A stretch of DNA of 64,000 bases from Candidatus Fimenecus sp. (lineage in GTDB: Bacteria; Bacillota; Clostridia; Oscillospirales; Acutalibacteraceae), in NCBI GenBank assembly GCA_045595185.1, contig JAZNZX010000014.1:3614-67613 (forward strand). Direction: 5' to 3'. Below are positions 53,545 through 56,104 of this stretch, piece by piece. Under the pieces are notes generated by a model, which was not told the origin of the DNA, did no database searches, and worked only from the letters and a program-made list of their open reading frames with translations. The position numbers and the translations under genes were made by a program. Every line of letters starts with the position of its first letter. Position 1 is the stretch's first letter.

Positions 53545-54303
53545 TTACCTAACTGTTCCATCCTTAATATGATAATCAATACCATTTTCATTGCAAAAGG
53601 TTATTACTTGTTCTGCACATTGATTATAAAACTGTCGATTGTCACGATATGCAGAAACATCTTTGCTATAATTTGTGCGACCAAAAATTATTTTATCAAC
53701 AAAACTTATCTCTTTTAAGATATCCATAAGGTCCTGTTCAATAAGATTTGGAGTTGGATATGGTTCCATACTAACCCACGTTTTGCATCCTTTTTTGCTC
53801 AAGTCTTTAAGTGATTTTATGCGTTTTTTTATAGGAGCAGCACCTGGCTCCATTAGTTCACGATATTTTTCATCCAAAGAAATTAAGGTGATACCATATT
53901 CATTATCTTTTGAAAATTCTGATAATTCTTTTGGTAATATTCCTTTGGTAAGCACTGTACATTTAATACTATTTGCATTCAGTTTTCTTATAATTTCTAT
54001 GCTCATTTCTGAAACTTCATCGTAGCCATACATAAAAGGGTCAGTAGTAAAACAAAGATGTACAGACTTAATTTTATCTTTAAGTTTTGGAATTTCTATA
54101 TCCAGAATTTCAAGAGTATTTTCAGCAAGTTTGGGTTCGCACCATTCTTCGTAGGTTTTTGCTTTACCGAACCTTTTTGCCATCATCATTGCATAGCAAG
54201 GAAACTTACAACCATGAGCACATCCTTGCACATGATTTATAGTGTAATCACCATATTCTACGCCTGTTTTATATAGCATTGTTCTTCTTGTTATTTTATT
54301 CAT
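53545..54303 (-). CDS. Three-Cys-motif (CX3CX3C) radical-SAM-like protein, SplB/COG1533- or Gp37/Gp68-like
   Basis: N-terminal GCAHGCKFPCYAMMMAKR, later VHLCFTTDPF, CTVLTKG and WVSMEPYP strands consistent with a partial TIM barrel. The ATG overlaps the upstream stop (ATGA). Confidence 0.55.
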   Translation of the reverse strand: MNKITRRTMLYKTGVEYGDYTINHVQGCAHGCKFPCYAMMMAKRFGKAKTYEEWCEPKLAENTLEILDIEIPKLKDKIKSVHLCFTTDPFMYGYDEVSEMSIEIIRKLNANSIKCTVLTKGILPKELSEFSKDNEYGITLISLDEKYRELMEPGAAPIKKRIKSLKDLSKKGCKTWVSMEPYPTPNLIEQDLMDILKEISFVDKIIFGRTNYSKDVSAYRDNRQFYNQCAEQVITFCNENGIDYHIKDGTVR

Positions 54304-55400
54304 AAATTATCTCCGAATTGAATCAAATCATGACCTTTGTATTGCCCACGTTTACTCGATACTCGTGTGATTGTAACCTTTCCCTCTTGCTGTAACATTT
54401 CAAGTGCTTCACTCAAATCCTTGCAAGTATAAGGAACTATATCTGCAACTTTTGCCCAAACATAATCAAAGGACCGACTCTGTGATTTGAACACCTTCAA
54501 GAAACGTTCAGCAAAATCTGCACTTTTAAAACTTGCTAAATCAAACAAAGTAATTCCATCTTGATTCTTTCCAATATATTCTACTCTACCATAGTTTACA
54601 GATGCGAAACTATCTTTCATATATGTAATACCTTGAATATCATTGGTTGCATGAACAAGATAATAGTATGTCCTATTTTTATCTGAAAAACAGATTCTGT
54701 ATGCAAATACATATTTTGCTTTTGTAGCTTTTTTTAGTTTCTCTTTATATAAAGCTATCAAGAATTCTTCTCGTTCCGTTCCACTCAAATCATTAGCTTT
54801 ACTCCATTCGTTTGAGCCAAAAAAGTTATCAAGCAGTTCTGGACTAGAAACTGAAAGAAAACGATTAATCCAGTCAAACATAAAATTTATAAAAACTTCA
54901 TTTTTTCTGTTTTCCATCATTTGTTTCATAGAAGACATCTTCATTGAGTAACCAAATGGGTCTACAAAAAACAATGTTGGATGTGTAGAATAGTACCTTT
55001 TAACGCGAGGATCGTATAAGACTTTTTCAAAATCATCATTTTTAATGGATATAGTTTTTTTACCGATATCATCATTTATTTTCTTGAAATTATTGTAGTG
55101 TTCTATGTCTGTTTCACAAGCACAAATAAAGTTTTTTCCGTTGCGTTTTTCGTTTATAGCACAGGCAAGTTCTTCAACCAAAAATGAAGAACCATAAGTA
55201 ACCTCATTAGTATTCTTATCTACATAAGCACCACATCCAGCGTGACAATCGAAAAACATAGTTTCCCTGTATTTTCCTAATTTTGATATCCAAATTTTCG
55301 CATATGCACTTAAAACACGATGCTTTATTTTTGTCTGTTCTTCATAAAGCCATCCAAAATAATTTTTATCTTCTATTGGTATCTTTTTGGGTTTTGACAT
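54300..55400 (-). CDS. TcmP-like (three-Cys-motif partner) protein; Rossmann/MTase-like N-domain plus a winged-helix-like C-terminus
   Basis: FFDCHAGCGAY (aa 49-59) and LFFVDPFGY (aa 143-151) resemble MTase motifs I and IV. C-terminal KDLSEALEMLQQEGKVTITRV. Paired with a three-Cys protein as in TIGR04474 (from memory). Confidence 0.5.
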   Translation of the reverse strand: MSKPKKIPIEDKNYFGWLYEEQTKIKHRVLSAYAKIWISKLGKYRETMFFDCHAGCGAYVDKNTNEVTYGSSFLVEELACAINEKRNGKNFICACETDIEHYNNFKKINDDIGKKTISIKNDDFEKVLYDPRVKRYYSTHPTLFFVDPFGYSMKMSSMKQMMENRKNEVFINFMFDWINRFLSVSSPELLDNFFGSNEWSKANDLSGTEREEFLIALYKEKLKKATKAKYVFAYRICFSDKNRTYYYLVHATNDIQGITYMKDSFASVNYGRVEYIGKNQDGITLFDLASFKSADFAERFLKVFKSQSRSFDYVWAKVADIVPYTCKDLSEALEMLQQEGKVTITRVSSKRGQYKGHDLIQFGDNL

Positions 55401-55444
55401 TTTACAGCCCCCTTTGAATAATAGACTTCTCCATATAATATATT

Positions 55445-56104
55445 TTAAATGTCCTTGAATTCTTTAGGCAACTGCTTTAGTGTGCATTTTTCTTTTAAAA
55501 TTACAACGCCCGATGCTATTCCATCATCCGTTGACACCTCAACAATATTGCCAACTTCATATTCTGTATCAACCGATACAAAGAAATCGTTTTTTCCGCT
55601 GTCTAATAATGATACTTTATAAACAGTATAAATCTGGTCCATTACTATATTATCTTGCTCAACTTCTGTTGTATTAATATGTTTACCATACTCGAACACA
55701 ATTTCTGATTCCTTAGCATCATCAATCGCTTCATTATATTCTTCACGAGTTTCGTAATTTTCAGGAGATATATCATATTCGCTGCCATCTTGACAATTTA
55801 ATCGCCAAGCATATTTGTTGCTGGATGTTTTATAAGGCCTACTATGATGATTATCAGTATCATCAAATGCACCCATGGCACCTAACACTCCACCCAGTTT
55901 TAATAAATCTTCTGTATCATCAATTAGGCCTAAACCCCAAGCAGCACCTGTAGCTGCATAAGGGTCAATTTTTGTTCTATTACTTCCTCTTTTTTGTCTT
56001 CTTTTGTAAGTAATATAATCAAATGTGGCAGCAGCTGCAAGGTCTATAAGAGTATTAAAAGGTTCCGGACACTTTGAACTACTTTTTCTTCTTTTTTTCG
56101 CCAT
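55445..56104 (-). CDS. Hypothetical protein with a basic N-terminus and two Gly/Ala-zipper segments
   Basis: 219 aa. MAKKRRKSSSK, then AATGAAWGLGLI (aa 50-61) and LGGVLGAMGAF (aa 70-80), then an acidic, beta-rich C-terminal half. AAGGAGG SD 23 nt after the brxL stop. Confidence 0.6.
   Translation of the reverse strand: MAKKRRKSSSKCPEPFNTLIDLAAAATFDYITYKRRQKRGSNRTKIDPYAATGAAWGLGLIDDTEDLLKLGGVLGAMGAFDDTDNHHSRPYKTSSNKYAWRLNCQDGSEYDISPENYETREEYNEAIDDAKESEIVFEYGKHINTTEVEQDNIVMDQIYTVYKVSLLDSGKNDFFVSVDTEYEVGNIVEVSTDDGIASGVVILKEKCTLKQLPKEFKDI

Follow-up and report, generated by a model that had tools for sequence, protein, structure and literature searches.

The 3' end of a type-1 bacteriophage exclusion (BREX) operon from Candidatus Fimenecus sp. 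(GenBank assembly GCA_045595185.1, contig JAZNZX010000014.1, positions 3,614 to 67,613) continues, after brxL, into a tail of three more minus-strand genes, encoding proteins of 219, 366 and 252 amino acids (aa). We analysed this tail in the stretch of 64,000 nucleotides (nt) that contains it, referred to here as the window, in whose numbering positions are given unless a locus is named. The tail is neither one new arm of BREX nor an already explained system; judged from its sequence, it appears to consist of a BREX-linked gene of which we found no description and a mobile variant of a catalogued candidate system. Our favoured explanation, which we hold with moderate confidence, is that two unrelated modules lie side by side at the 3' end of the type-1 BREX operon, namely a BREX accessory gene (the 219-aa gene, 55445..56104) and an independent mobile pair (53545..55410), made of a tcmP gene (366 aa, 54300..55400) and a three-Cys radical-S-adenosylmethionine (radical-SAM) gene (252 aa, 53545..54303).

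A preliminary description of this DNA had treated the three genes as one module, and this part of it does not withstand a comparison of gene orders. Among 87 loci holding a homologue of the 219-aa gene, none contains a tcmP or radical-SAM match, and no match to the 219-aa protein or BrxL occurs in the 31 loci of a genome scan for TcmP and the fetched TcmP loci (~45 pair loci in all). The closest copy of the pair lies in locus L001, with 96% protein identity. In their DNA, the window and L001 (9991-11856) share 91.7% identity over 1866 nt, which correspond exactly to 53545-55410, and their flanks are unrelated in blastn. The matching stretch extends from the stop codon of the radical-SAM gene to ~10 nt upstream of the tcmP start, including the ribosome-binding site. 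Since identity ends sharply at both sides of the pair, we consider it to be a discrete cassette of 1.87 kb. In L001, this cassette follows a DUF188 gene, in an island which holds type I HsdR, DUF3427 helicase, NUDIX and PIN genes and no BREX genes. The composite nature of the tail thus follows both from the absence of co-occurrence elsewhere and from the exact extent of the L001 identity.

These observations largely refute the hypothesis of a single BREX arm, in which the 219-aa protein would tether TcmP and the radical-SAM enzyme to BrxL and thereby provide a second DNA modification or an effector activity. The tight packing of the three genes on the same strand, with no terminator before 53473, speaks for such an arm, but tight packing at the 3' end of a defence operon is no proof of functional unity, because this position is a cargo hotspot. 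With a cassette boundary falling exactly at two of the three genes and a 92%-identical copy in a BREX-free island, we regard this hypothesis as very improbable. The two roles proposed earlier for the whole tail are better divided between its parts: an accessory arm of BREX fits the 219-aa gene only, and an independent system carried on the BREX transcript fits the pair better. Likewise, the tail had been called undescribed, which seems to hold for the 219-aa family, of which we found no description, and not for the pair, whose family is already catalogued (TIGR04474, PDC-M30/M41).

The brxL-linked 219-aa gene

Homologues of the 219-aa protein form 237 clusters at 90% identity (E <= 1e-3). The first look-ups placed two homologues directly 3' of brxL, in BREX loci with differing downstream genes, and a metagenome scan added 80 loci, for a census of 87. 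brxL lies directly upstream on the same strand in all 85 informative loci, encoding a BrxL 82-91% identical to that of the window, while the two uninformative ones are on contigs without upstream sequence. A scan of IMG/VR yielded only one locus with a 219-aa homologue, L150, which has the same brxL/219-aa order, bringing the count to 86 of 86 informative loci besides the window. The gap between the brxL and 219-aa alignments is at most 96 nt in 82 loci, and three loci carry an insert of 1.2-1.4 kb. The loci of the census are not clonal copies, since the 219-aa proteins fall into 24 clusters at 80% identity and the accompanying PglZ proteins are 26% to 72% identical to that of the window.

Between loci where BrxL is 82-91% identical, the 219-aa family is only 35-62% identical. 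The genes located 3' of the 219-aa gene vary by cluster and include NYN-domain proteins, helicase-sized open reading frames (ORFs), DUF4268 and others, which makes the 3' end of these BREX operons a cargo hotspot, with the 219-aa gene positioned between brxL and the variable cargo. The best explanation for this gene seems to be a lineage-specific (gut Clostridia), soluble BREX accessory that travels with brxL. Given its strict position, its lack of an enzyme-like domain and its fast evolution compared to BrxL, the 219-aa protein could be an adaptor or a sensor bound to the BREX machinery rather than an enzyme. A gene that follows brxL and evolves several times faster than BrxL offers a new handle on how BREX stops phages. 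An unknown gene also follows brxL in the type-4 BREX of Bacteroides salyersiae, where it is dispensable for phosphorothioation (PMC12914056), and a 2026 survey of BREX components makes no mention of such a brxL-following gene (PMC12839542).

Two further observations concern the BREX operons themselves. Across L036-L122, BrxL stays at a steady 82-91% identity, the adjacent PglZ falls into classes of ~30%, 50-60% and 70% identity, and PglX ranges from 39% to 79%, a pattern which suggests modular exchange inside BREX operons, with brxL and the 219-aa gene possibly moving as one block. L136-L143 are BREX loci devoid of the 219-aa gene. Upstream of pglZ, they hold a PLDc_2 gene and a YjcQ gene, together with an ORF of 321 aa. 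This ORF matches only the C-terminal third of PglX (residues 627-946), an arrangement that could be due to specificity switching or decay of pglX.

Searches of Pfam, NCBIfam, PADLOC and PHROGs found no match to the 219-aa protein. In its family alignment (A2), five segments can be told apart. The N-terminus is basic (pI 10.8) and conserved, as are the two Gly/Ala-rich helices after it (…DPYAA.G.A.G.G…TED…LGG.LGAMGAFD). They are followed by an acidic linker, which is variable, by a motif of ~33 residues (YAWRLNCEDGS.YGI.PEDYETR.EY) present in one or two copies, one in the window protein, and by a small C-terminal beta domain. The basic N-terminus, the Gly/Ala segments and the beta-rich C-terminal domain had been recognized before, the Gly/Ala segments under the name of zippers. 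We rule out a membrane zipper, as no transmembrane segment is present (maximum Kyte-Doolittle value of 0.99 over 19 residues). The AlphaFold2 (AF2) model has a mean predicted local distance difference test (pLDDT) score of 72, with a C-terminal barrel at ~90. In a Foldseek search with this model against the PDB, nothing scored below E = 0.025, the C-terminal barrel showing a weak Tudor/SH3-like resemblance.

When 1.84 billion representative proteins were searched with a profile of the 219-aa family, 1075 clusters were recovered. Many of these relatives measure 500-850 aa, carry the motif up to ten times and share the C-terminal barrel, and some also have the Gly-rich N-terminus. A Pfam scan of ten long relatives found no domain in nine of them. 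The tenth, P0264 (452 aa), is a predicted chimeric protein in which residues 1 to ~224 of BrxL are fused to the C-terminal two thirds of a 219-aa-family protein, with a junction at similar short sequences (…LLARM|LGAMGAFD…); it is either a deletion or an assembly artefact, and in either case further evidence for the adjacency of brxL and the 219-aa gene. Another long relative, P0269, finds no counterpart on plasmids, and its similarity to three Oscillospiraceae phages is confined to the C-terminal barrel.

Three long relatives were placed in their genomic context. The first is at the end of a DUF499(HEPN)/DUF1156/SNF2 operon, a domain set which fits the "BREX-related" systems named in PMC12839542. 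The second ends an operon resembling type-4 BREX, whose BrxL has no Lon domain and which also encodes a cysteine desulfurase (Aminotran_5). These two contexts are suggestive, not conclusive, of a tie between the 219-aa family and the BREX superfamily in general.

Several observations weigh against a BREX accessory. The third long relative lies among housekeeping genes, and eight loci have an 89%-identical BrxL without the 219-aa gene, which is therefore dispensable for BREX as such. In addition, the census found close relatives, by means of two short peptide patterns, in redundant gut metagenomes, and the AF2 model of the 219-aa protein is weak overall (predicted template modelling score, pTM, of 0.31), with no significant structural match. 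The 219-aa gene might instead be an independent cargo, regulatory or counter-defence gene that became fixed at the hotspot after brxL, a hypothesis in line with the brxL loci devoid of the gene, the varied cargo downstream of brxL, the long relative found away from any defence system and the fast evolution of the family. We judge it unlikely, because brxL is upstream in every informative locus, through 24 clusters and next to divergent PglZ and PglX, because the gene always stands between brxL and the variable cargo, and because relatives end two other operons of the BREX superfamily.

The tcmP/radical-SAM cassette

TcmP homologues were traced by a scan of a genome collection, which gave the 31 distinct loci mentioned above, and by assembly look-ups, together with a tblastn census using six proteins of the window. 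The radical-SAM gene is immediately 3' of tcmP in 21 of the 31 loci and in all of the looked-up loci that reach far enough, and the two ORFs overlap by 4 nt or are at most 10 nt apart in 17 of the 18 related loci where both are complete. In the window, the tcmP stop and the radical-SAM start overlap as ATGA (54300..54303, minus strand), which suggests that the two genes may be translationally coupled. The closest relatives are found in metagenome-assembled genomes (MAGs) of Acutalibacteraceae and Oscillospiraceae.

The settings of the pair are diverse. It follows a ResIII-Eco57I fusion gene and a 208-aa gene in one context, a PLD-SNF2 helicase and an Eco57I/N6_Mtase/TaqI_C gene in another, with SIR2 and HpaII systems beyond, and an EcoRI-type methylase and a GmrSD_N/HNH gene in a third. 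In L019, it follows a type IIG enzyme, and in L007 the type III genes mod and res. In L020 (7992-14792, Firestonebacteria MAG), type III mod and res, both confirmed by Pfam, flank the pair on either side, and the ORFs overlap or abut; L021 (7857-14891, Nitrospirae MAG) has the same layout as judged by gene size and order alone. These two loci represent true embedding rather than appending. Overall, restriction-type operons, including type IIG, type III and type ISP-like ones, are the preferred setting of the pair. In a bulk scan of 95 neighbouring ORFs, the recurrent matches were DNA methylases, ResIII, ThsB-TIR and a Schlafen-type helicase, with transport and metabolic genes scattered at the edges of the islands.

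Pairs of TcmP and a three-Cys protein are widespread, being known from gut Clostridia, Nitrospirota and Melainabacteria, from plasmids of rhizobia and haloarchaea, and from the immunity regions of actinophages. Two observations lend support to a conflict role of the wider family. The temperate Gordonia phage ThankyouJordi has a canonical pair (gp42, gp41) adjoining its immunity repressor, near the integrase, and the tcmP of S. meliloti and the Hna defence gene are listed as members of the same putative transcription unit (PMC12445080). On the Halopiger plasmid pHALXA02 (L134, NC_015667.1), the partners are arranged in a third way, as the haloarchaeal tcmP adjoins two larger genes annotated as radical SAM (~350 and ~450 aa) and lies near a ThiF-family adenylyltransferase.

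Just past the 3' end of the pair, a DUF6809 gene is present both in the window, where it is convergent, and in the Acutalibacteraceae locus L004 (11945-12223), where it is co-directional, the two proteins being 52% identical. We rejected this gene as a third member of the cassette, given its opposite orientations and its absence after the pair in L001.

The 366-aa protein had been described as TcmP-like, with methyltransferase-like motifs and a winged-helix-like C-terminus, and all of this is borne out. It passes the TIGR04474 TcmP model, whose cut-off is 53 bits, with a score of 140.1 bits (E = 1.2e-40) and an alignment to positions 1-260 of the 263 in the model, and Pfam GMT-wHTH matches its C-terminus just under the gathering score (3.6e-5). 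An AF2 model built from 33 homologues (pLDDT 90.7, pTM 0.90) shows an RlmJ-like domain (~residues 1-275) followed by a winged helix (~residues 280-350). Foldseek ranks 1-14 are all RlmJ/DUF519 structures (E 9e-8 to 1e-5, probability 1.00), with a template modelling (TM) score of 0.5-0.56 on the target and an identity of ~10%. A profile search of PDB sequences found no relative of TcmP, no RlmJ-family Pfam model matches it, and a Foldseek search of viral structures returned generic class I methyltransferases alone. Residues D51, C52, G55, G57, Y59, D147-P-F-G150 and a TYYYLxHxT block are invariant in homologues down to 38% identity, so that the active site looks like a live one, not that of a decayed domain. 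The winged helix is less conserved than the enzyme domain (39% and 57% mean identity, respectively).

The 252-aa protein passes the PF04055 Radical_SAM model (47.8 bits for a cut-off of 29.5, model positions 1-165 of 166) and narrowly passes PF07505 DUF5131 (30.1 bits for a cut-off of 28.9). Its Cys triad, C28-x3-C32-x3-C36, is invariant in 16 of 16 aligned sequences from several phyla, with a mean column identity of 69%. Hence, the Cys triad and the radical-SAM assignment proposed earlier are correct, and the likeness to SplB proposed with them is a distant one, the NCBIfam scores being far below their cut-offs. A profile search of PDB sequences found no relative. This partner is far more conserved than TcmP, with 61-64% identity compared to 37% in the most distant loci, L020 and L021. 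Locus L144 (3080-5106, MT836112.1, a "Bacteriophage sp." contig from human faeces) has a radical-SAM gene 68% identical to that of the window, preceded by a much more divergent TcmP of 416 aa, detected by hhalign at 97% probability and 21% identity, showing that the partner stays conserved while TcmP diverges widely. A conserved partner next to a variable TcmP and winged helix fits a conserved catalytic subunit associated with a diversifying recognition subunit.

The best explanation for the cassette seems to be a self-contained, horizontally mobile unit with no dedicated tie to BREX, most probably an independent defence or modification module, which may rely for its expression on sites within restriction-type operons or at their ends. 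From the folds and conserved motifs observed, we infer that TcmP and its partner, presumably coupled in translation, could form a complex, in which TcmP would dock on a nucleic acid through its variable winged helix and present a base in the RlmJ-like SAM-binding pocket, where the three-Cys radical-SAM partner would perform radical chemistry on it. Such chemistry might leave a protective covalent mark, inflict a lesion on the DNA of an invader or modify an RNA. If the pair does carry out radical-SAM chemistry on nucleic acids for defence, it would represent new enzymology in bacterial immunity, with the variable winged helix as a possible programmable targeting element.

Some features of the pair do not favour a defence or DNA-modification module. 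Motif IV of adenine-N6 enzymes is (D/N)PP(Y/F). TcmP differs from these enzymes in having DPFG, so methyl transfer is not assured, and the radical-SAM partner has a Cx3Cx3C motif instead of the canonical CxxxCxxC, with one extra residue between the second and third Cys. Since RlmJ acts on rRNA, RNA could be the substrate of the pair. Furthermore, the pair contains no nuclease or other obvious effector, two copies abut transporters (L009 and L018), no TcmP of this subfamily was found in the IMG/VR contigs scanned, and the link to restriction genes may reflect merely their abundance in defence islands.

Could the pair be a passive passenger of mobile DNA without any defence role, acting in RlmJ-like modification of rRNA or tRNA or in SplB-like lesion repair? 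The structures closest to TcmP are indeed those of an rRNA methyltransferase, the pair has no effector domain, the radical-SAM partner is weakly similar to proteins of the PA0069/Rv2578c "DNA repair photolyase" type, and some copies have housekeeping neighbours. Nevertheless, the unit moves between defence islands, is patchy across phyla, is embedded in type III operons, occurs in a prophage immunity region and has a fast-varying winged helix. Since mobility, embedding and a fast winged helix are traits of accessory or conflict genes and not of housekeeping enzymes, we consider this hypothesis quite improbable.

A different proposal would make the pair a plug-in for SAM-dependent restriction systems that methylate adenine (BREX, types I, IIG and III, ISP), which might act on the N6-methyladenine (m6A) mark or on the unmethylated site, or serve as a backup when phages deplete SAM or block these systems. 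Of 13 distinct contexts, at least 8 show the pair co-directional with an operon encoding an N6-adenine methyltransferase and placed immediately after or inside it, as in the mod-[pair]-res order of L020 and, by gene size and order, of L021. The RlmJ-like fold is that of adenine-N6 enzymes, and the related PADLOC candidates are defined by embedding in BREX, DISARM or type I restriction-modification systems. Against such a role, the five kinds of host system have unrelated methyltransferases, which argues against a specific protein partnership, the copies next to transporters (L009, L018) or in a phage immunity region have no adjacent restriction genes, and, whatever gene of a defence island is considered, restriction genes are its most frequent neighbours. 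We therefore see a plug-in as a minor possibility and retain an independent module as the preferred explanation for the pair.

A bolder hypothesis, which goes beyond this explanation and which we put forward only tentatively, makes two claims jointly. The cassette would be a mobile system in which an RlmJ-like base-binding subunit with a variable winged helix guides radical chemistry, so as to introduce a novel covalent modification, or a lesion, into DNA; inserted at the ends of BREX and restriction operons, it would add to their immunity. The 219-aa repeat family would be an unrecognized component common to type-1, type-4 and DUF499 BREX-related systems of gut Clostridia, which could serve as a sensor or adaptor under arms-race selection.

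Locus layout and transcript end

All of the genes of the BREX operon in the window are on the minus strand. PADLOC matches for pglX, pglZ and brxL establish a type-1 BREX core in one operon, brxA, brxB and brxC being outside the window. The pglX gene (61079..63919) matches the PglX model with E = 0 over model positions 257-1169 of 1174. It is cut by the window edge, its N-terminal ~250 aa being found neither in the listed ORF nor in the window. pglZ (58228..60753) matches the PglZ model at 3.4e-299, in a BREX context, and brxL (56128..58206, stop codon 56128-56130) matches the BrxL model with E = 0 over residues 17-692. brxL is the last canonical gene of the operon and anchors the tail.

We confirm the arrangement reported for the three tail ORFs, with gaps of 23 nt and 44 nt followed by the ATGA overlap, and all three genes are real, as each has many conserved homologues. 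The purine-rich Shine-Dalgarno sequences are also present: GAAAGGAGG in the 23-nt gap between brxL and the 219-aa ORF, AAAGGGGG in the 44-nt gap between the 219-aa and 366-aa ORFs (both on the minus strand), and GGAGA upstream of the 252-aa ORF.

As reported, the gene string ends at a long hairpin, which we place at 53473..53520 and interpret as an intrinsic terminator. It has a 20-bp stem followed by a U-run and a folding energy of -30.7 kcal/mol (z = -6.6 measured against 200 shuffles). The hairpin is bidirectional, because a convergent plus-strand ORF ends at the same site; this ORF, outside the tail, is the DUF6809 gene (53168..53455, PF20648 4.5e-24). Between brxL and the hairpin, a consensus scan found no terminator-like site, and the promoter-like matches are weak and at background frequency (48 found, 51 expected). 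Thus, there is no sign of a transcriptional break between brxL and the tail.

On the far side of the island, ruvB (49339-50382), ruvA (50395-51000) and ruvC (51013-51513) are housekeeping genes that abut the BREX island, followed beyond ruvC by a Zn-ribbon-like 210-aa gene and an XRE-type helix-turn-helix gene (52402-52614). This places the right-hand boundary of the island near 52.3-53.5 kb. Elsewhere in the window, 28137-34974 (minus strand) contains two very large overlapping ORFs of 1173 and 1114 aa.

Comparison with known families and systems

No BREX model of PADLOC (BrxA-F, BrxHI/HII, BrxP, PglW/X/XI/Y/Z, BrxL) matches any of the tail proteins, in agreement with the earlier statement that none of the three genes is canonical for BREX. 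Defence genes in or next to BREX, for example BrxU/GmrSD, have been used for "guilt by embedding" (Payne et al., bioRxiv 10.1101/2024.01.29.577857). The tail resembles such cargo in being putative unrelated defence cargo in the same orientation as BREX and probably co-expressed with it. It differs in being appended after the last BREX gene, not nested between BREX genes, and no PADLOC model recognizes the 219-aa family or this radical-SAM subtype with usable strength.

Literature searches on TcmP, three-Cys-motif, DUF5131, PF07505, TIGR04474, PDC-M30 and PDC-M41 returned incidental mentions and no functional study, and no experimentally characterized function was found for the trio, as had been expected. 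Concerning individual proteins, TcmP shares its fold, an Asp-Pro-aromatic motif and a Gly-rich SAM-type motif with RlmJ, the 23S rRNA m6A2030 methyltransferase, and with DUF519. The catalytic motif of RlmJ is DPPY. TcmP has DPFG at this position, shows no sequence-level match to RlmJ, and stands apart from it by its additional winged helix and its obligatory neighbour, the radical-SAM gene.

In its N-terminal and core regions, the radical-SAM partner is weakly similar to SplB and to COG1533-type "DNA repair photolyases" such as PA0069 and Rv2578c (E ~1e-9 to 1e-11). Within the radical-SAM superfamily, SplB/COG1533-type proteins and DUF5131 fall into one broad region (PMC9477430). Nevertheless, the partner is distinguished from SplB, PA0069 and Rv2578c by its Cys spacing, no solved relative is detectable by sequence, and its scores place it outside the SplB-type families (43 bits for NF033668, with a cut-off of 360, and 38 bits for NF038135, with a cut-off of 430).

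Radical-SAM enzymes with an antiviral role are known from prokaryotic viperins and from Ophion, where OpnA is the catalytic core of an anti-phage system (bioRxiv 10.1101/2025.09.30.679545). We rejected Ophion as the identity of the pair because the architecture differs, with PHP and PRTase partners and another radical-SAM subfamily. Neither does anything in the pair indicate nucleotide-product chemistry; the winged helix of TcmP points rather to a polymer as substrate.

The closest described systems are PDC-M30 and PDC-M41, two-gene "phage defence candidates" of PADLOC which consist of canonical TcmP/DUF5131 pairs. The window pair resembles them in its 366-aa protein, which matches PDC-M30A and PDC-M41A, in its ~250-aa three-Cys partner, in its location in defence islands and in its embedding in restriction-type operons. 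These matches are partial, since TcmP aligns with the A models over residues 140-271 only (2.6e-21), and the partner with PDC-M30B and PDC-M41B over ~residues 12-130 (6.6e-6 and 2.6e-7). In contrast, canonical DUF5131 partners from rhizobial plasmids, Fusobacteriaceae, a Vampirovibrio/Melainabacteria-type MAG and Gordonia phages match these B models at 1e-96 to 1e-116, and have a C-x6-C-x2-C motif instead of C-x3-C-x3-C. The window partner also scores higher on Radical_SAM than on DUF5131, and an hhalign comparison with canonical DUF5131 covers the N-terminal Cys region only (89.6% probability, 72 columns). Finally, canonical pairs are often convergent, whereas the window subtype is co-directional with a 4-nt overlap. 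As the PDC-M30/M41 models align with only part of each of its two proteins, the pair, which is related to these systems, lies outside their models; it is a variant subtype, which current defence finders would probably miss.

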